Of a stretch of 46,785 bases of DNA, positions 1-46,785 are shown in pieces. The translations under genes and the position numbers were made by a program. The first letter of the stretch is position 1. Each line of letters opens with the position of its first letter. The DNA lies in the NCBI GenBank assembly GCA_029337695.3, contig GCA_029337695.3_4851.1; one strand, given 5' to 3'. The notes under the pieces were generated by a model. It searched no databases. It had not been told where the DNA came from and saw only the letters and a program-made list of their open reading frames with translations. Origin of the DNA: a phage.

Positions 1-7
1 AAAAAAA

Positions 8-400
8 ATGGCAGCACCAACACCTGAAGAATTAGTAAGCCAGATGGCATCCCGTGGAATGACTATCACCACAACGGATGCGTCCGGTATTTTGTGCCTC
101 GTGGCATCAATCAGTGAATGCCTTGAGCTGAACTATCCAAATGATGAATGCCGACAAAATGCGATCATGCTGTGGGCTTCCATCCTGATTAGCGCAAATA
201 CTGCTGGTCGCTACGTTACCAGCCAGAGCGCACCTTCTGGCGCATCACAATCATTCGCGTATGGCAGTAAGCCGTGGGTGGCGCTGTACAATCAGATGAA
301 GCTACTGGATACAGCCGGATGCACTGGCGATTTGGTGGAAGACCCTGACGGAAGCGGTAAACCGTGGTTTGCGGTTGTGCGTGGGAGTAAGTGCAAATGA
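8..400 (+). CDS. putative head-tail connector/adaptor protein
   Basis: 130-aa ORF first in a run of co-oriented small structural genes upstream of the tail module; ATG at 8 follows a poly-A tract. Function is by position only. Confidence 0.4.
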   Translation: MAAPTPEELVSQMASRGMTITTTDASGILCLVASISECLELNYPNDECRQNAIMLWASILISANTAGRYVTSQSAPSGASQSFAYGSKPWVALYNQMKLLDTAGCTGDLVEDPDGSGKPWFAVVRGSKCK

Positions 401-11130: not shown

Positions 11131-12966
11131 ATGGCTACCATACCAACCAATAAACCAATTCCGTCAGAAGACCCGCGCGACCTGAAATTTAACGCCGGTA
11201 AAATTGACGAAGTTGTCAACTCTGATGCACACTACTACACCGACCGCTTCGGGGTGCGCAGATGGACGATTGCAGGATTTCAGTATACGGCAGAAGAAGC
11301 TATCCGTAATTATGGCTACATCACAATGGACAGTTTTGAAGATGGAGCGACACTGACGCTTCCCAATCAGACACTGCGTTATGAAGCAAATGGAGAATAT
11401 TATCGCTGGGATGGTGTGTTCCCGAAGGTTGTTCCAGCCGATTCCACTCCAGGAACAACTGGAGGAATTGGAAGTGGTGCGTGGGTAAGTGTGGGTGATG
11501 CGGCATTAAGAACACAGCTAAATACATTGGGATTAAATTCCTCTCTCGGCTCGAATGGAAATGCTATCTGGGGAAAGGGAGCGTTCGTTAGTAACAGTTA
11601 TGCAAAAAATAATGCCTTTTTCGGTGTTGATGCTGGTTCCTCAATAACCGGAAGCTCATCTGACGAAGCCATCGGAGCCGAGAATACGGGGTTGGGCCGC
11701 CGCGCTGGCGTTAACCTAACGTCTGGGCAGCGCAATGTACTGGTTGGTCATGAAGCGGGCGCATTGCTAACCACAGGTAGCTATAACGTTTATATTTATG
11801 CGCAAAGCTCTTCTTATGCCAATTATAAGACCGGTAGCTATAACGTAGTAATTGGATATAACGCAGGAAAGCTCCTTACATCTGGCGATCGCAACGTATC
11901 AGTGGGTACGGACGCAGGTTCGGCTACGACGACTGGTCGTGACAACGTCGCCGTAGGGCATGCTGCAATGCAAAACAACTCATCGGGTGGCGGAAATACT
12001 TATCTTGGCGCATTCGCAGGAACTGAAACTGGCTCTGGCGGAAACAACCTTGCGGCAGGTCGATCTGCTTTATTCCGTAATACTGACGGCGCTGGCAACG
12101 TTGCGTTAGGACGAGAGGCTGCATTAGGTGTATCGGGTACAGGTGCCTCTCCAAATAATATTGTTGCCATTGGTTATCAGGCTGGCTGGTCGCAGAACGG
12201 GTTAAATGGTGTTGTATTTTGCGGCATGCAGTCTGGCTATAAAGCAACAGTAATGAACGATACCGTGCTGCTCGGCAGGGCGTCAGGCTTTAATCTTACA
12301 ACTGGCAGTAATAACGTGTTTGTAGGCGCAGCAACGGGCGACAGCGAAACGACAGGCAGTCAGCTTGTTTATCTCGGCCACCAGTCGGGGCGATTCCTTA
12401 TAGACGGAACACCCGCCACGGGGAAATTAAACTGTGTATCCATTGGATATCAATCCCGTGTTGGTGGTAACCATGAAGTACAACTGGGCAACTCATCACA
12501 AACAGTTTACGTATATGGAACCGTACAGACTCGCTCTGATGAGCGAGACAAGGCAGACAAGCGAGAAATTGACGCTAATCTCGCTGTTTCTTTTGTTCGC
12601 GGAATTACGCCATATTTATATAAATGGGATTATCGTGACGATTATATTGAAGAATATGATGTAAAAGTCGGAGACGATGAAAATGGCAATCCTGTTTATG
12701 AAACCAGAGTTCGACATCTCGATAAGGATGGAAGCAAAAAAAGAACGCGTGACCACGCAGGATTCCTGGCTCAGCAGGTAAAAGAATTACTGGACCGACT
12801 TGGAATTGACTGCGGTATATATCAGGACCATTTAGTTAACGATGGTTGTGATGTGAAGACCCTTGCCTATGAGCAGGCGATACCTTTCATCACAAAAGCT
12901 ATGGACGTTGCTTTTTCTCGCCTCGACAACATTGAAGAACGACTTGGGAAACTTGAGAATCAATAA
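11131..12966 (+). CDS. tail fibre with C-terminal S74 intramolecular chaperone (autoproteolytic) domain
   Basis: 611 aa; central Gly/Ala-rich beta-helix-like repeats; C-terminal TRSDERDKADKREID has the Ser...Lys dyad spacing of peptidase S74 chaperone domains. Confidence 0.8.
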   Translation: MATIPTNKPIPSEDPRDLKFNAGKIDEVVNSDAHYYTDRFGVRRWTIAGFQYTAEEAIRNYGYITMDSFEDGATLTLPNQTLRYEANGEYYRWDGVFPKVVPADSTPGTTGGIGSGAWVSVGDAALRTQLNTLGLNSSLGSNGNAIWGKGAFVSNSYAKNNAFFGVDAGSSITGSSSDEAIGAENTGLGRRAGVNLTSGQRNVLVGHEAGALLTTGSYNVYIYAQSSSYANYKTGSYNVVIGYNAGKLLTSGDRNVSVGTDAGSATTTGRDNVAVGHAAMQNNSSGGGNTYLGAFAGTETGSGGNNLAAGRSALFRNTDGAGNVALGREAALGVSGTGASPNNIVAIGYQAGWSQNGLNGVVFCGMQSGYKATVMNDTVLLGRASGFNLTTGSNNVFVGAATGDSETTGSQLVYLGHQSGRFLIDGTPATGKLNCVSIGYQSRVGGNHEVQLGNSSQTVYVYGTVQTRSDERDKADKREIDANLAVSFVRGITPYLYKWDYRDDYIEEYDVKVGDDENGNPVYETRVRHLDKDGSKKRTRDHAGFLAQQVKELLDRLGIDCGIYQDHLVNDGCDVKTLAYEQAIPFITKAMDVAFSRLDNIEERLGKLENQ

Positions 12967-13228: not shown

Positions 13229-13453
13229 ATGTTACTGACTACAAATGAAAAAGCTTTTCTCAAGATGCTGACTGTTTCCGAAGGAACCAGCACTAGCAAG
13301 TACACCAAAAATAACGGTTACGATGTAATTGTTAATGGCATTGGTGGTGAACCAAAGACCTTTACTGACTACAGCAAGCACCCCAATGTGCTGGTTACTG
13401 TAAACAACAAAGGTCTTAAGTCTACCGCTGCTGGGGCATACCAGATTTTGTAG
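13229..13453 (+). pseudogene. truncated lambda R-like lytic transglycosylase (N-terminal ~70 aa only)
   Basis: KAFLKMLTVSEGT...GYDVIVNG...FTDYSKHP...LKSTAAGAYQIL parallels the lambda R N-terminus block by block and then hits TAG where R continues about 90 more residues. Confidence 0.55.
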
Positions 13454-13461
13454 CCCATGAC

Positions 13462-14049
13462 GTGTATTTAAACGGAAGTTCTGGAAAGGACGTTATTGTG
13501 GAGTCCGTCGCATCGCAATCTGCAACGATAGCTACCACAAACTTATCTCTGAGTGGCAACTTAACAAGAGGGAGGGTATTTAATACGCCGACAGGGAATA
13601 AATTAATGGCTATCACATTTGACTCAGGTAGCCATGATTTTTCTGGTAGCGGCACCGTTAACGGTTCGACTGTATCTGACGGACTTCACGCCGCTACATG
13701 TACCGAATTTTCATTCCCTGGCGCTGGTTTGTTCGAGATGGTAGCTTCAAGAACGACAATAACATCATGGAGATGGTACGTGTGGGGAGTTAACTCACGC
13801 CTACAATCTGGCTCGGCGGACATTAGTATAACGTCAGGTATTACCATGGGTAGTGTTTACACAAAGCCGGGGGAGTGGATTAGCACTTTCGGTGTAGGAA
13901 AGGCATCTGCCACTGGCACTGTAGCGCTATACGTTTCCACAGGAGGAGGTTCGGGAGCTACGGTTAGATTCAGTGACTTTTTCATCGCTGAGTTTACGAC
14001 GCAAGCTCAGGCTTTAGCTTTCGCCAATTCAAGGATGTCGTTATCATAA
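13462..14049 (+). CDS. hypothetical Ser/Gly/Thr-rich protein
   Basis: 195-aa ORF with GTG start and no clear RBS, different frame from the R fragment; could be a domain remnant. Confidence 0.3.
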   Translation: MYLNGSSGKDVIVESVASQSATIATTNLSLSGNLTRGRVFNTPTGNKLMAITFDSGSHDFSGSGTVNGSTVSDGLHAATCTEFSFPGAGLFEMVASRTTITSWRWYVWGVNSRLQSGSADISITSGITMGSVYTKPGEWISTFGVGKASATGTVALYVSTGGGSGATVRFSDFFIAEFTTQAQALAFANSRMSLS

Positions 14050-14080
14050 AAAACAACCCCGCTTCGGCGGGGTTAGTTTC
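14048..14080. terminator. bidirectional rho-independent terminator
   Basis: AACCCCGC-ttcg-GCGGGGTT hairpin flanked by A and T runs between convergent genes. Confidence 0.75.
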
Positions 14081-33726: not shown

Positions 33727-33927
33727 TCATGACCACACCCCAACAATAACGAAGAACAGCACCACAATCATGCTCACAGCACAGAATGGACCGTAAATTA
33801 TGGCGAAGTAGTTTTTTCTTTGTCGCACCCATGGCGTATAGGGAGCGCACAACATAAAAGCAAAAGAAAGAACCCACAGTGTAATTATCGAGCGAGCAAC
33901 AAATTCAAGCGTACTCATGTTTACCAC
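33727..33927 (-). CDS. small membrane protein
   Basis: 66 aa with two hydrophobic segments. Confidence 0.4.
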   Translation of the reverse strand: MVNMSTLEFVARSIITLWVLSFAFMLCAPYTPWVRQRKNYFAIIYGPFCAVSMIVVLFFVIVGVWS

Positions 33928-33936
33928 CTCTCTATT

Positions 33937-33991
33937 TGATGTAGATACTATGCACCACCACTCAATCTACGTCAATACCTGTTGTGATAGA
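33937..33991 (+). promoter_or_regulatory. divergent promoter region with inverted AATCTAC motifs and extended -10 (TGTGATAGAAT)
   Basis: TGATGTAGATA (33937-33947) and AATCTACGTCAA (33963-33974), then TGTTGTGATAGAAT upstream of the endolysin. Confidence 0.5.
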
Positions 33992-34019: not shown

Positions 34020-34460
34020 ATGAAACTATCGCAACGCGGCAAAGAGCTAATCAAGTCGTTTGAAGGGCTGGAGCTACGCGCTTATCCTGACCCCGCTACA
34101 GGTGGCGCTCCGTGGACAGCTGGATATGGTCACACTGGTGCAGACGTGAAGCCCGGAATGACGGTAACACAGGAAATGGCTAACGCATGGCTGGATAGTG
34201 ACGTGAAGAAGTTTGAGGATGGCGTATCGGCGCTGTTAACCGCGCCAACCACTCAGTCGCAATTCGATGCAATGGTGTCACTGGCATACAATATTGGTCT
34301 TGGCAATTTCCGCAAATCAACCCTGCTACGTAAGCATAACGAGAAATGCTACACCTGTGCCGCCAGCCAGTTCCTCGCATGGAATCGCGCTGCTGGTAAA
34401 GTTATGAATGGCCTGACACGGAGGCGTAACGCAGAGCGCGCTATGTATATGGGGCAATGA
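34020..34460 (+). CDS. endolysin (lysozyme-like, GH24-type)
   Basis: 146 aa; N-terminal LSQRGKELIKSFEGLELRAYPDPATGG...TAGYGHTG pattern of phage lysozymes. Confidence 0.75.
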   Translation: MKLSQRGKELIKSFEGLELRAYPDPATGGAPWTAGYGHTGADVKPGMTVTQEMANAWLDSDVKKFEDGVSALLTAPTTQSQFDAMVSLAYNIGLGNFRKSTLLRKHNEKCYTCAASQFLAWNRAAGKVMNGLTRRRNAERAMYMGQ

Positions 34461-34687
34461 AAAAGCTAAGCAACTGGCTGCTCGGCGCGTGGATTTCGTT
34501 TTGTTCTCTGCTGCAGCTATGGCCTGATGCAATGATGCATGTATGGGTAATGATGCCGGACGACCTGAAAGCGGCACTACCGCCAATCGTGGTTAAAGGG
34601 GTGAGTTATTCAATCATGCTGGTTGGTATCCTCGGCAAAATGCACGGCATGAGGAAGGAAAACCGGAGGCTGCGCAATGGTGAGTAA
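34457..34687 (+). CDS. putative holin (two TM segments, charged C-terminus)
   Basis: 76 aa, coupled to the endolysin stop; C-terminal KMHGMRKENRRLRNGE. Confidence 0.45.
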   Translation: MKKLSNWLLGAWISFCSLLQLWPDAMMHVWVMMPDDLKAALPPIVVKGVSYSIMLVGILGKMHGMRKENRRLRNGE

Positions 34688-34827
34688 GCAAAGAGATGTA
34701 TTGGTGCTGGAATGGATGCACATAACCAGCAAGGAAGACAATATTGAGTCGGCGTGGCGCGCACTTAAAAAGCGCTCACAATTGGTGCAGTTTGCAACTC
34801 ACCGGTGTTTTATATGGAGGCTGCGCA

Positions 34828-35316
34828 ATGATGACGATTCTCGCTAAATACTGGAGGCCACTGGCAATTATTATAATTGTTGCTGCTGGCGCGTTGTGGG
34901 TGCGTAGTGAAGTCATCAACTACGGCGACCAGCGATACGCAGAAGGCAAAGCTCAGGCAATCGCAGAACAGAAGGCCGCAGACGAACAAGAGGAGCAAAG
35001 ACGCAATGCAGAACTGCAAAAGATTCAGGCCGACGCGCAGCAAAGGATTGATGCTGCGCGTAATGATGCTGTTAATGCTGCCGCTAAGTCTGGCAGGTTG
35101 CAGCAACAACTCGCAAACATCCGCAAGCAGCTTGTCGGATATTCCACCGCTGAGTCCATTGGCAACCCAGCCGCAGAAACCGGAGTTTTGCTTTCCCAGC
35201 TGCTCTCAGAATCTGTCGAAAGAAATCGACAACTGGCAGATTACGCTGACAGGGCAAGAGAGGCAGGACTAGCGTGCCAGAAGCAATACGAATCACTGAC
35301 AAGGAGACAGAAATAA
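34828..35316 (+). CDS. i-spanin (Rz-like)
   Basis: N-terminal TM (LAIIIIVAAGALWV) then coiled-coil periplasmic domain; GGAGG RBS before the ATG at 34828. Confidence 0.7.
   Translation: MMTILAKYWRPLAIIIIVAAGALWVRSEVINYGDQRYAEGKAQAIAEQKAADEQEEQRRNAELQKIQADAQQRIDAARNDAVNAAAKSGRLQQQLANIRKQLVGYSTAESIGNPAAETGVLLSQLLSESVERNRQLADYADRAREAGLACQKQYESLTRRQK
35051..35272 (+). CDS. o-spanin (Rz1-like lipoprotein) embedded in the +1 frame of Rz
   Basis: MLRVMMLLMLPLSLAGC lipobox followed by a Pro/Ser-rich short mature domain, entirely inside the Rz gene. Confidence 0.65.
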   Translation: MLRVMMLLMLPLSLAGCSNNSQTSASSLSDIPPLSPLATQPQKPEFCFPSCSQNLSKEIDNWQITLTGQERQD

Positions 35317-35658
35317 ATGTTCAAATCCGACCTTATCGTCAAGCTGAACAAAAAATCAACGTGGACGCTAATGGAGCCATTAATCTATGAGTTCAGGCAT
35401 CAGGAAATAAAAGTTCCAGCAGGATTTCGCACTGATTTTGCCAGTGTCCCGAGGCTTCCTTACCTGTTCGCTTTCATTGGTGATGTGGGTCAGAAAGCAG
35501 CAGCCGTTCATGATTATCTGTACGCCACCCATTCGGACAGGAATTTCGCTGATGATTGCTTCAGGCAGGCGCTGAAGGATAGCGGAGTGTCATCGCTGAG
35601 GGCTGGCGTTATGTGGCTTGGTGTCAGGATGTTCGGCTGGATAAAGTTTAAGGGATGA
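35317..35658 (+). CDS. DUF1353 domain protein
   Basis: 113 aa with FRTDFASVP resembling the DUF1353 F.TDGAS.P signature; coupled to the Rz stop. Confidence 0.45.
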   Translation: MFKSDLIVKLNKKSTWTLMEPLIYEFRHQEIKVPAGFRTDFASVPRLPYLFAFIGDVGQKAAAVHDYLYATHSDRNFADDCFRQALKDSGVSSLRAGVMWLGVRMFGWIKFKG

Positions 35659-35660
35659 AG

Positions 35661-35688
35661 AAAGCCCCCGTAATGGGGCTTGTGTTTA
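35661..35688. terminator. bidirectional rho-independent terminator
   Basis: AGCCCC-cgtaat-GGGGCT hairpin followed by TGTGTTT. Confidence 0.65.
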
Positions 35689-37004: not shown

Positions 37005-37041
37005 TCTACATCATTTAGTCAATACTTATTGACGTAGATTG
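36998..37041 (+). promoter_or_regulatory. promoter (TTGACC-17 bp-AATACT) with motif in the spacer and an inverted copy downstream
   Basis: TTGACCAATCTACATCA (36998-37014), -10 AATACT (37021-37026), inverted TTGACGTAGATTG (37029-37041). Confidence 0.55.
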
Positions 37042-45821: not shown

Positions 45822-45867
45822 TTGCTTCTACGTCACTAACTATAAACGCCACATCAATCTACGTCAA
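45822..45867 (+). promoter_or_regulatory. divergent promoter region with two AATCTACGTCA motif copies
   Basis: TTCTACGTCAC (45822-45836) and CAATCTACGTCAA (45855-45867) between divergent operons. Confidence 0.45.
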
Positions 45868-45915
45868 CAGGAATATGCTAAAATCATGCTAATCAAACAA
45901 CAGGAGATTTAAGCA

Positions 45916-46056
45916 TGGTTAAGTGCATCAAGAAAAATGGGTCGACGAATGGCCCTTCTCGTTCTCGCGCTACTGGCAATACCAAAACTGGCGGCAAAAC
46001 TGGCGCAGTGAAGCCAAACGGCTCCACCCGCTCACCATCGCGCGGTAAGAAATAAT
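45916..46056 (+). CDS. small basic low-complexity protein (46 aa)
   Basis: MVKCIKKNGSTNGPSRSRATGNTKTGGKTGAVKPNGSTRSPSRGKK, with a GGAG RBS. Confidence 0.35.
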
Positions 46057-46495
46057 GTTCGGCGCAGACGTTGCCATCATGATCATGTATGCGCTTGGTT
46101 TTGCCTGCACGGGCATGGTCGCGTTTCTGGTGTTCATTCCGGCAATGGTGATGTCTGTGTATCTTGGATGGGTGCTTGTTGATTCATTTCCCGCCGAATA
46201 TCTGTATTACCTTGCGCAGTCTATGGTCTGGTTGTTCCCGGCTATCGCACTGCGCAAAAGTACAAAGATGGCGCTCTGCGCGCTGACGATGAGCCTTTAC
46301 GAATGGCTGGTAGCGATAGAGTCATTCGTATGGGAATTTATCACGCCTGTAGAAACGCCGCTTCATGCGCAGTACGCATTTATTATTATCGGCATCCATC
46401 TGTTCATCCTTTCCATCACTTTTAAATGGGGCGGCGAAATTGGACATTATTCTTGGCGTGGTCGCCATTGTTTTTTCGCTGATTCAAATCTATAA
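46055..46495 (+). CDS. polytopic membrane protein
   Basis: 146 aa with about four hydrophobic helices; ATGA overlap with the previous ORF. Confidence 0.45.
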   Translation: MFGADVAIMIMYALGFACTGMVAFLVFIPAMVMSVYLGWVLVDSFPAEYLYYLAQSMVWLFPAIALRKSTKMALCALTMSLYEWLVAIESFVWEFITPVETPLHAQYAFIIIGIHLFILSITFKWGGEIGHYSWRGRHCFFADSNL

Positions 46496-46527: not shown

Positions 46528-46785
46528 ATGAACGGGACACTAAGGCAAGTCGCAGAGCAGATTATAAGCGGAACGACAGGACAGGTGATTGATAAAGCTG
46601 GGTATGCTTCTATTGGAACCGGCATCGGCATGAAAGTTGCAGAGCAAACACCTGTCACGCAATCTTATTTTGAGACTATGATTCCACACTCATTAACAGA
46701 GTGGGCGGCGGTTGCATCAATACTTGGTGCGCTATCTCTGGTAATAAAAAACCTCTTTGAAATGTGGTGGAAGGTACGGGAGTCG
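46528..46785 (+). CDS. holin-like small membrane protein, 3'-partial at window edge
   Basis: ATG at 46528; Gly-rich segment GYASIGTGIG then TM-like EWAAVASILGALSLVI and basic WWKVRES; the second segment loosely resembles S21-type pinholins. Runs off the window. Confidence 0.3.
   Translation, partial: MNGTLRQVAEQIISGTTGQVIDKAGYASIGTGIGMKVAEQTPVTQSYFETMIPHSLTEWAAVASILGALSLVIKNLFEMWWKVRES

Follow-up and report, generated by a model that had tools for sequence, protein, structure and literature searches.

The region at positions 34020-35681 of the stretch of phage DNA analysed here (46785 nucleotides; the window) is, as read from its sequence, a canonical three-step lysis operon of an ordinary, published type, and a distal pair of genes for small membrane proteins (146 and 94 aa) would contribute an accessory membrane function linked to lysis. 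The probability of this reading as a whole is put at roughly 0.7. Since the 94-aa gene wraps the window junction (46528-46785 and 1-27), the window is read as a circularly permuted genome, that of a Skate-like siphophage (Salmonella/E. coli tailed-phage type). A cassette of the same kind has been described for Salmonella phage Skate (PMC6606912), and more than 160 relatives have a matching cassette in their annotation. All features given below are on the plus strand.

The lysis operon

The gene order at 34020-35316 is GH24 endolysin, a 76-aa protein with two transmembrane domains (TMDs), and a DUF2514 i-spanin within which the o-spanin is embedded. The preliminary description had proposed this arrangement, with the endolysin (34020-34460) upstream of the putative holin (34457-34687), and all of its elements are present as judged by Pfam and PHROG matches, hydropathy and translation. 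While its reading of the cassette stands, its gene models were changed at the i-spanin, for which a TTG start at 34744 had been chosen, and by the addition of a 56-aa ORF (34677-34847) that had been overlooked.

The endolysin (146 aa) is predicted to be a soluble GH24 muramidase of the T4-lysozyme type. It matches Pfam PF00959 (Phage_lysozyme) over residues 12-139 (E 3.9e-46; 156.9 bits against a cut-off of 22.3) and phrog_7 endolysin (2.4e-56), and its ATG is preceded by GGAGG 6 nt upstream. No SAR or signal segment was found in it: the N-terminus (MKLSQRGKELIKSFEG) is charged and hydropathy shows no hydrophobic window in the whole protein. It is established in lysis biology that a soluble endolysin without such a segment needs a large-hole holin, and a holin of that kind would therefore be required here. 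No second intact endolysin was found within the window. Skate, Bas80 and most relatives carry a lambda-R-type transglycosylase together with a 92-aa GH24 remnant, whereas the GH24 muramidase of the window is intact. The transglycosylase that replaces GH24 in the relatives also has no hydrophobic N-terminal stretch when inspected by eye. Such endolysin swaps among relatives are the usual mosaicism.

The start of the next gene overlaps the endolysin stop codon as ATGA. Its 76-aa product, a putative class II holin, scores 39.4 bits against PF25612 (DUF7940; cut-off 27) and matches the PHROG holin families phrog_13249 (1.2e-50) and phrog_1356 (4.3e-7); a precomputed PF25612 domain is present in all 54 of its 54 homologues. 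The two membrane segments ascribed to this ORF from the start are borne out by hydropathy, which predicts TMD1 at about residues 7-22 and TMD2 at about residues 41-60. The predicted topology is N-in/C-in, with an N-terminal MKK, an acidic loop and a basic tail (KMHGMRKENRRLRNGE). A dual-start motif, typical of class II holins and not obligatory, is absent from the protein, which has one N-terminal Met and the next Met at residue 26.

The 76-aa gene is under strong purifying selection (pN/pS 0.00-0.14). Its distant DUF7940-like homologues adjoin endolysins in Burkholderia, Stenotrophomonas and Xanthomonas phages, even with other gene orders; in BcepNazgul and Stenotrophomonas phage QH3, for example, they lie beside an endolysin and Rz/Rz1 in an order that differs from that of the window. 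Literature searches with DUF7940 and with peptide strings of the 76- and 94-aa proteins returned nothing on either family, and 'holin' is an annotation for the 76-aa protein. The identity of the true holin had been called unclear; given the DUF7940 match above cut-off, the PHROG holin matches, the low pN/pS and the adjacency to endolysins in distant phages, that view was overstated. The converse arrangement, in which the distal 146- and 94-aa proteins would be the true holin/antiholin and the 76-aa protein an accessory (an antiholin or membrane anchor), is considered unlikely. DUF7940 is formally a DUF family, which would leave room for it, but the tie between DUF7940-like genes and endolysins holds across phages of Enterobacteria, Burkholderia, Stenotrophomonas and Xanthomonas, and the 76-aa gene is both translationally coupled to the endolysin gene and strongly constrained.

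The i-spanin (Rz-like, 162 aa; 34828-35316) matches PF10721 (DUF2514; 1.5e-30) and phrog_312 Rz-like spanin (1.5e-48). A single N-terminal TMD at about residues 9-25, by hydropathy, is followed by a periplasmic domain predicted to be helical. Its start is placed at ATG 34828 (or 34831), behind a GGAGG ribosome-binding site and fixed by alignment to relatives, in place of TTG 34744. The o-spanin (Rz1-like, 73 aa; 35051-35272) matches phrog_11621 Rz-like spanin (1.2e-33). Its ATG at 35051 has AAGGA upstream, its signal peptide is MLRVMMLLMLPLSLAGC, the lipobox is LAGC with Cys17, and the mature part is Pro-rich with two additional Cys. It lies wholly within the i-spanin gene in the +1 frame (offset 1), so that the lipoprotein gene reported earlier as entirely embedded is confirmed, with its ATG now placed. 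The equivalent protein of IME207 is annotated as an outer-membrane spanin. The pair is of the two-component embedded Rz/Rz1 type, and its predicted role is disruption of the outer membrane as the final step of lysis.

By analogy with the lambda paradigm, the 76-aa protein would accumulate in the inner membrane and form large holes at a set time; these would let out the soluble GH24 muramidase, which would degrade the cell wall, and the embedded spanin pair would then disrupt the outer membrane. The lambda S-R-Rz/Rz1 cassette likewise has a holin, a soluble endolysin and an i-spanin gene in whose +1 frame the o-spanin is embedded. In contrast to lambda, the endolysin of the window comes before the holin and is a GH24 muramidase where lambda has a transglycosylase; the holin, of class II, has two TMDs instead of three and is without a dual-start antiholin. 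There is no sequence relationship between lambda S and the window holin.

Directly after the i-spanin stop codon begins a DUF1353 gene (113 aa; 35317-35658; PF07087, 8.6e-25), the last of the rightward lysis unit. It also matches phrog_1158, whose label 'tail assembly chaperone' is unverified; Skate is without this gene. The transcription unit probably extends past the spanins and through the DUF1353 gene to a terminator-like hairpin (AAGCCCC...GGGGCTT with a T-rich tail; 35662-35681), which probably ends it. The hairpin was found by a consensus scan, in which terminator matches were not enriched over shuffled sequence. Promoter scans gave no convincing rightward sigma-70 promoter for either the lysis unit or the distal unit. 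A shared ATCTACGTCAA motif is the reverse complement of leftward promoters of the TTGACG type.

An insertion between the holin and spanin genes

Skate and its relatives (Skatevirus, Cedarrivervirus Sf11, Shuimuvirus IME207) share with the window the 76-79-aa class II holin family, the DUF2514 i-spanin, the embedded o-spanin and the gene order, as well as a 146-aa and 94-aa gene pair upstream of the head-completion genes. The cassette is another instance of the published Skate-type arrangement and in itself teaches nothing new. It differs in a 151-bp insertion with flanking repeats (34665-34830) between holin and i-spanin, which together with its 56-aa ORF occurs in only nine records.

The insertion was seen by DNA alignment of the window with gmqsjt-1, Bas80 and IME207. 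It is bounded by exact 15-bp direct repeats (GGAGGCTGCGCAATG) at 34665-34679 and 34816-34830 (two copies against 0.01 expected in a repeat search), and the repeat is a duplication of the i-spanin ribosome-binding site and start codon. As a consequence of the insertion the C-terminus of the holin changes from ...RRLRNDVNSR (79 aa) to ...RRLRNGE (76 aa). An RNA element was considered and rejected, as Rfam gave no relevant match and the folding z-score was 0.24.

The insertion carries a candidate ORF of 56 aa (34677-34847), of uncertain coding status, whose product would be soluble and basic. It has no match in PHROG, Pfam or NCBIfam. In the nine records it occupies the same slot, is weakly constrained (pN/pS about 0.3-0.8) and is truncated in phage C1; in IME207 the slot holds an unrelated ORF of 68 aa. 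The insertion is read as having landed between holin and spanin by duplicating the translation-initiation sequence of the spanin, and the small ORF on it is of doubtful function.

The distal 94-aa gene

The preliminary description had also noted a separate Gly-rich, holin-like ORF from 46528 onward and had taken it to be incomplete at 46785. The ORF proved to be a conserved gene, found in 205 phage records, and it is complete: 86 codons (46528-46785; phrog_13738 'membrane protein', 6.5e-55) are followed past the circular junction by the last eight codons and the stop (1-27). Translation across the junction gives a protein of 94 aa that ends in ...KVRESKKNGSTNT*, identical to the end of Bas81_0054. 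The gene overlaps the next one (8-400, phrog_786) by 20 nt, and this layout is the same in Bas81, Sf11 and Skate. Some 12 kb separate it from the lysis genes. A literature search on Bas80/Bas81 found no relevant paper, and the Skate record, which comes from the group behind the published Skate lysis cassette, gives it only the label 'membrane protein'.

The 94-aa protein has a conserved Gly-rich segment at about residues 24-38, one strong TMD at about 57-77 (TMD2) and a basic tail. The Gly-rich segment falls below the hydropathy threshold, as does TMD1 of S21. The AF2 model is of low confidence except for the TMD2 helix, and the Gly-rich segment is modelled, at low confidence, as coil. For the counterpart in Klebsiella phage vB_Kpn_ZCKp20p (ORF54), two TMDs are reported from DeepTMHMM (PMC9901506).

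Among the secondary matches of the 94-aa protein and its family members, those with a functional label are only to holin families (PF04971, PF16080, PF10746 and phrog_20, 4237, 1350 and 920), the best match to phrog_20 reaching 1.4e-6; one other cross-match is to the unannotated phrog_12246. All holin-family matches of the distal gene are below the curated cut-off. The 94-aa protein itself has PF04971 as its best Pfam match, at E 0.069 and 13.6 bits against a cut-off of 26, and the best family member scores 18.2 bits. The family HMM was also scored against S21, T7 gp17.5 and lambda S with 500 shuffles of each: S21 (6.5 bits) and T7 gp17.5 (12.4 bits) were above their own shuffles and inside the overall shuffle range. 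In hhalign the family aligned to S21 with only 34% probability (pairwise E 4e-4), over TMD2 and the tail, and a profile search against PDB sequences gave no match.

The resemblance to S21 (PF04971, holin superfamily II) raises the possibility of a pinholin, as had been suggested for the distal gene. Pinholins depolarise the membrane and so activate a SAR endolysin. The 94-aa protein shares with S21 a weakly hydrophobic first segment rich in Gly, Ala, Ser and Thr, a strong second TMD starting W-A-A, and a basic tail, and the family match, best in Pfam though sub-threshold, is joined by the hhalign alignment of TMD2 and tail. It differs from S21 in its longer N-terminus and loop, in having neither a dual start nor a SAR endolysin partner, and in its distance from the lysis genes. 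A role as a strict pinholin is unlikely, since the only intact endolysin of the window is without a SAR domain; the relatives' transglycosylase, again by eye, offers no such partner either. The PF04971 score is about half the cut-off, AF2 places no helix at the Gly-rich segment, and the charged N-terminal extension of 23 residues and the Lys in the Gly-rich segment would be expected to oppose a SAR-like exit of TMD1. A genuine S21-type pinholin is therefore very improbable, and the earlier suggestion does not hold in its strict sense.

Partner gene, genomic contexts and role of the distal pair

Directly upstream of the 94-aa gene lies a gene for a polytopic membrane protein of 146 aa with four to five predicted helices by hydropathy (46055-46495; phrog_14688, 4.8e-95). 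Its AF2 model (pLDDT 74.7) is a helical bundle, for which Foldseek against BFVD and PDB found no annotated match, and the label 'lipoprotein' given to it in relatives is probably wrong. The pair is kept in Skate, Yersinia phage P400 and metagenome contig L011; the P400 paper has nothing on either gene. In Klebsiella relatives the 146-aa partner is missing altogether. ZCKp20p is such a case: like the window it has two holin candidates, one in the cassette (ORF27) and one distal (ORF54), both holin-like and class II by DeepTMHMM (PMC9901506), a classification that is a topology prediction only, but it has no gene for the 146-aa partner.

Word-indexed searches with the 94-, 76- and 146-aa proteins gave only close relatives (at least 55% identity apart from fragments) with almost no names, and distant 94-aa homologues were reached only by a full HMM scan. 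In most genomes the 94-aa gene is in the structural module and not beside lysis genes. Its distant homologues occur in two settings, the same head-to-tail slot and the neighbourhood of endolysins. Among about eleven independent distant contexts there are four that place the homologue no more than three genes from an endolysin, against about 9% expected, a comparison that is a rough estimate and not a statistic. These four are L014 (Peptidase_M15_4, with GTA_holin_3TM), L017/18 (Amidase_2), L019 (Phage_lysozyme) and Paraglaciecola virus JLT2 (DUF5675), and in each a polytopic membrane protein of 149-165 aa precedes the 94-aa homologue. The partners in L014 and JLT2 have no significant similarity to the 146-aa protein of the window, and those in L017 and L019 were compared by eye only. 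As homology of the partner was found only in Skate-like phages, P400 and L011, the pair is elsewhere defined by position and architecture only.

The endolysin-adjoining proteins of 152-163 aa in L017, L019 and JLT2 were considered, on inspection by eye, as further GTA_holin_3TM members; Pfam, which matches this family only in the L014 protein, did not confirm this, and their only matches were to the unannotated phrog_9646 and phrog_1544.

These contexts also bear on whether the distal pair could be the true holin/antiholin. In distant phages the pair is found within lysis cassettes, the 94-aa family cross-matches characterised holins (S21, HP1, T7 and phrog_20) and some annotators have named the 94-aa protein 'holin'. 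However, the distant cassettes always carry another membrane protein adjoining the endolysin, one of them GTA_holin_3TM, and the pair is never the sole candidate. The 94-aa protein is probably neither the primary holin nor a true pinholin. Because it resembles holins in architecture and in its weak family matches, and some of its distant homologues sit in lysis cassettes, a regulatory or accessory role in lysis is possible. Most likely it would act as an accessory, whether antiholin, second holin or timing factor, loosely comparable to LysA of P2.

Phage P2 offers a positional and architectural analogue of the distal pair. Its lysis genes (Y-K-lysA-lysB-lysC) lie within a late operon between head-completion and tail genes and include, in LysA (141 aa), an additional polytopic membrane protein whose annotation gives an effect on the timing of lysis. 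The likeness of LysA to the 146-aa protein is one of size and polytopic architecture only: BLASTP of the 146-aa protein against LysA gave no alignment with E ≤ 100, and hhalign of the 94-aa family against the P2 holin Y gave 1% probability. The two systems differ in that the endolysin and spanins of the window are located elsewhere and not with the distal pair. The pair heads the head-completion/tail operon, outside the lysis operon, and is therefore probably expressed late.

A role unrelated to lysis (superinfection exclusion, envelope protection or an assembly-related factor), in which the holin-like appearance would be that of any small bitopic membrane protein, has a considerable though well under even chance of being correct. 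PHROG places the 94-aa protein in the category 'moron/host takeover', and in Skate it is labelled 'membrane protein'. In all close relatives, as well as in the distant contigs L010 and L012, the gene heads the structural operon by a divergent promoter region, the sub-threshold holin matches mainly cover the TMD and basic tail, and the 146-aa partner is dispensable in Klebsiella relatives. Set against this, the gene stays in a syntenic position even between widely diverged phages, an unusual behaviour for a moron, endolysins adjoin the homologue in four independent distant cases, and every functionally labelled cross-match is to a holin family.

For the preferred reading, in which the distal pair is an accessory to the lysis operon, a more far-reaching form can be suggested, tentatively and with more doubt than confidence. 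The 146- and 94-aa proteins may form an unrecognised, widespread two-gene module for lysis control, acting as antiholin, second holin or trans-acting timer for holins without a dual start. Distant phages would have kept it in their lysis cassettes, and in Skate-like and Rouf-like siphophages it would have been relocated to the start of the head-completion/tail operon, where its expression would be uncoupled from that of the lysis operon.

There is no Pfam model for the distal 94-aa family. It is conserved in phages that range from enterobacterial to marine ones, and it alternates between the lysis cassette and the head-to-tail junction. If the distal pair regulates lysis timing, the control of class II holins that have no dual-start antiholin would be explained, and the lysis paradigm would gain a new accessory component. 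Skate-like phages, including BASEL phages Bas77-81 on E. coli K-12, are genetically tractable, so that the role of the distal pair is directly testable.

The genome and its lysis cassette

Both the lysis region and 21.8 kb of the window matched approximately 170 to 220 phage records by megablast. The best matches are Escherichia, Salmonella and Shigella siphophages of 45 to 48 kb (EcoIv28_Lewi, ECO111 5-P, swi2, IME207, Sf11 and the BASEL phages Bas80 and Bas81), which share ~90 to 94% identity over ~70 to 90% of the query. The matched relatives are members of the Skatevirus-like cluster (Cedarrivervirus, Shuimuvirus, Skatevirus and others). The ORF leaving the window at its end resumes in frame at position 1 and ends ...KVRESKKNGSTNT*, as does Bas81_0054; its 20-nt overlap with the gene after it is likewise found in Bas81, Sf11 and Skate. 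It follows that the window is an entire genome in circularly permuted form, opened within a gene encoding a 94-aa protein.

The preliminary description recognized a lysis cassette of endolysin, putative holin with two transmembrane segments (TMDs), i-spanin and embedded o-spanin, and family matches, hydropathy and reading frame confirm that all are present, on the plus strand. The endolysin (34020-34460) is a GH24 lysozyme (PF00959, 3.9e-46; phrog_7, 2.4e-56). Since hydropathy revealed no hydrophobic stretch, it is predicted to be soluble and holin-dependent. Its position ahead of the holin is the norm in this phage group. The majority of relatives carry a lambda-R-type transglycosylase and a 92-aa GH24 remnant, whereas the window and gmqsjt-1 keep an intact GH24 enzyme, as probably does Lewi (unannotated; 90% coverage in megablast). 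In most relatives the remnant, in frame with its catalytic core deleted, lies directly 5' of the transglycosylase (2586-2864 in Bas80 contig L002; 1772-2050 in Skate contig L009), and both are annotated 'endolysin'. It is a fossil of endolysin replacement, the window representing the unreplaced state.

A truncated 74-aa ORF (13229-13453, plus strand), distant from the cassette, corresponds to the N-terminal half of a lambda-R-type lytic transglycosylase (52% identity over 75 aa to Bas80_0017, tblastn E 1.6e-18); it retains the SEGT catalytic-Glu region and has no Pfam match. It sits just 3' of the resident tailspike gene (11131-12966; Tail_spike_N and Peptidase_S74). The T7-like podophage LM33_P1 (Kayfunavirus) and relatives have a tail-fibre gene whose 3' end is 95.7% identical in nucleotide sequence to the adjoining stretch at ~13448-14058 (195-aa ORF, 13462-14049, plus strand), for which there was no match in Skate-like phages. 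A receptor-binding domain was apparently transferred not long ago between a podovirus and this siphovirus; it lies downstream of the resident tailspike, and the transglycosylase piece is probably a remnant moved along with this module.

The 76-aa putative class II holin (34457-34687) begins with an ATG overlapping the endolysin stop codon as ATGA. According to hydropathy it has hydrophobic segments at residues 7-22 and 41-60; its N-terminus is MKK, its loop acidic and its tail strongly basic, the predicted layout being that of a class II holin. It scores above the Pfam cut-off for DUF7940, matches two PHROG holin families and is tightly constrained (pN/pS 0.00-0.14). Homologues were found by tblastn in 245 phage records, including Burkholderia phage BcepNazgul and phages of Stenotrophomonas, Xanthomonas and Pseudomonas. 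Those distant homologues that were inspected directly adjoin endolysin and Rz/Rz1, with the holin gene preceding that of the endolysin; synteny that outlasts a change in gene order argues well for a role in lysis. In the paper announcing the Skate genome (PMC6606912), this same gene is presented as a class II holin whose cassette also contains an i-/o-spanin pair of the embedded kind. No experimental report on the family was found in the literature. Families, constraint, synteny and the Skate paper converge on the 76-aa protein as the probable holin. In BcepNazgul (L028, 1223-1663, 146 aa) and Stenotrophomonas phage QH3 (L029, 1106-1420, 104 aa) a small hypothetical gene lies 5' of the DUF7940-like holin and could encode a second holin or antiholin.

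Directly adjoining the cassette and divergent from it is a 66-aa ORF (33727-33927, minus strand) with two strong TMDs, 77 to 98% identical in 13 relatives, including Skate gp14, and without a family match. The motif ATCTACGTCAA occurs seven times against 0.67 expected (33965-33975, 45857-45867 and 37029-37039, plus four with one mismatch), with copies in the divergent intergenic regions 5' of the lysis cassette and of the distal membrane-gene unit. Its reverse complement, TTGACGTAGAT, provides the -35 hexamer of TTGACG-N17-(C/T)ATAGT promoter-like sites facing leftward (inferred early) genes, and by eye an extended -10-like TGnTAnAAT follows those copies on the plus strand.

Spanins and the holin/i-spanin junction

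The i-spanin (DUF2514, 1.5e-30; phrog_312, 1.5e-48) has one N-terminal TMD by hydropathy. Its start, first placed at TTG 34744 from an ORF finder, is ATG 34828, behind GGAGG and in agreement with alignment to relatives. The o-spanin (35051-35272; phrog_11621, 1.2e-33; signal peptide MLRVMMLLMLPLSLAGC) lies wholly within it in the +1 frame. Directly after the i-spanin stop codon begins a 113-aa DUF1353 gene (35317-35658, plus strand), which gmqsjt-1, Bas80 and IME207 have and Skate lacks. Its PHROG label, 'tail assembly chaperone', looks doubtful because the gene sits in the lysis unit. A terminator-like hairpin (35662-35681) lies 3' of it, and the lysis operon is probably 34020-35681.

Alignment to gmqsjt-1, Bas80 and IME207 revealed a 151-bp insertion in the window between holin and i-spanin, with an exact 15-bp direct repeat, GGAGGCTGCGCAATG, on either side (34665-34679 and 34816-34830; found twice, 0.01 expected). 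The repeat comprises the i-spanin ribosome-binding site and start codon, and its first copy now initiates a 56-aa ORF (34677-34847, plus strand). Through the insertion the holin now ends ...RRLRNGE (76 aa) instead of ...RRLRNDVNSR (79 aa). The 56-aa ORF, found in nine records and truncated in phage C1, has no match in PHROG, Pfam or NCBIfam and is weakly constrained (pN/pS mostly 0.3-0.8 versus 0.00-0.14 in the adjoining holin); the insertion gave no RNA-family or folding signal. The 56-aa ORF is treated here as a small insert of doubtful function. As IME207 has a different 68-aa ORF at the same point, the junction is an insertion hot spot.

The distal membrane-protein pair

The holin-like ORF noticed at the window end is a real gene, present in 205 phage records, which continues across the junction to position 27 (46528-46785 and 1-27, plus strand; 94 aa; phrog_13738, 'membrane protein'). 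Features of the protein are a Gly-rich segment (IDKAGYASIGTGxGxK), which is highly conserved, a single strong TMD (WAAVASILGALSLVIKNLF) and a tail rich in basic residues. A few annotators label it 'holin', whereas the Skate record goes no further than 'membrane protein'. A word-based search found close relatives only; scanning all 1.8 billion representatives with an HMM gave 28 proteins of the family, down to ~20 to 30% identity.

The window protein matched PF04971 (phage 21 holin S) with E 0.069 and 13.6 bits, under the cut-off of 26. Family members reached 0.0025 with PF04971, 0.0057 with PF16080 (HP1 holin) and 0.24 with PF10746 (T7 holin), and matched phrog_20 (holin; four members, best 1.4e-6) and phrogs 4237, 1350 and 920, all 'holin'. 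None matched a family with another annotated function, the sole other cross-match (phrog_12246) being unannotated. The family HMM scored 6.5 bits with S21 and 12.4 bits with T7 gp17.5, the best shuffles reaching 10.8 bits. Of the queries in this comparison (S21, T7 gp17.5 and lambda S), the S21 sequence was confirmed as a real phage holin by a 100% tblastn match. An hhalign comparison with S21 gave 34% probability, over TMD2 and tail only, and confidence in the AF2 model is confined to the TMD2 helix. The holin signal of the family is weak; the protein is holin-like, membership of holin superfamily II being not established.

In the window a 46-aa ORF (45915-46055, plus strand) precedes a 146-aa polytopic membrane protein (46055-46495; phrog_14688; AF2 helical bundle, pLDDT 74.7) and the 94-aa gene, which overlaps the first head-completion-type gene. 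The same trio occurs in Skate (gp45-47), Bas81 and Sf11. Yersinia phage P400 (46% identity across the part that aligns) and metagenome contig L011 (32%) also carry a pair of 146-aa and 90-aa proteins; Klebsiella relatives lack the 146-aa partner. The 46-aa ORF is very basic and Gly/Ser/Asn/Pro-rich, with a repeated NGST(N)xPSR motif to which the 94-aa C-terminus (KKNGSTNT) is related. Its end coincides with the 146-aa gene's start codon, and similar small ORFs precede the pair in P400 (gp49), Skate (gp45) and L011.

Distant 94-aa homologues occur in two kinds of context. Some are in the slot known from the window, between major capsid and connector genes (contigs L010 and L012/13). Others border a lysis cassette, in L014 (Peptidase_M15_4 and GTA_holin_3TM), L017/18 (Amidase_2), L019 (Phage_lysozyme) and Paraglaciecola virus JLT2 (DUF5675 enzyme), always with a 149- to 165-aa polytopic membrane protein directly upstream. 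The L014 and JLT2 partners have no significant BLASTP similarity to the 146-aa protein, and those of L017 and L019 were compared with it by eye; the pairing in these four is positional and architectural, homology being not proven. Four of ~11 independent contexts are within three genes of an endolysin, well above a rough chance expectation of ~9% (an estimate, not a test).

Role of the distal pair

The cassette accounts fully for the three-step lysis pathway, and lysis can be explained without the distal gene. The doubt raised earlier about the identity of the holin was overstated. The question of a second holin-like ORF has already been noted in the literature: a pair of class II holin-like ORFs, called by DeepTMHMM only, is published for Klebsiella phage ZCKp20p (PMC9901506). 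For the distal gene a strict pinholin role is very unlikely because the sole intact endolysin found in the window is soluble and the PF04971 threshold was missed.

An accessory membrane function tied to lysis, as antiholin, second holin or timer, is the most likely reading of the pair (probability about 0.45). This reading gains some rationale from the cassette holin, which lacks a dual start. Phage P2 provides a positional precedent, as its lysis genes, including the extra polytopic membrane protein LysA, which affects timing, lie between head-completion and tail genes; no sequence similarity was found between P2 proteins and the pair (146-aa protein versus LysA, 94-aa family versus holin Y). 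The main rival, with a real chance of being right, is that the pair is unrelated to lysis and serves superinfection exclusion or another envelope role. A more novel reading, a new, relocated lysis-control module, is less likely than not.

The cassette is real, was read correctly in outline and is ordinary, another member of a published type. This analysis adds that the distal gene crosses the junction and encodes 94 aa in full, that it has a conserved polytopic partner, that its homologues in distant phages alternate between structural and lysis settings, and that the site between holin and spanin is an insertion hot spot.
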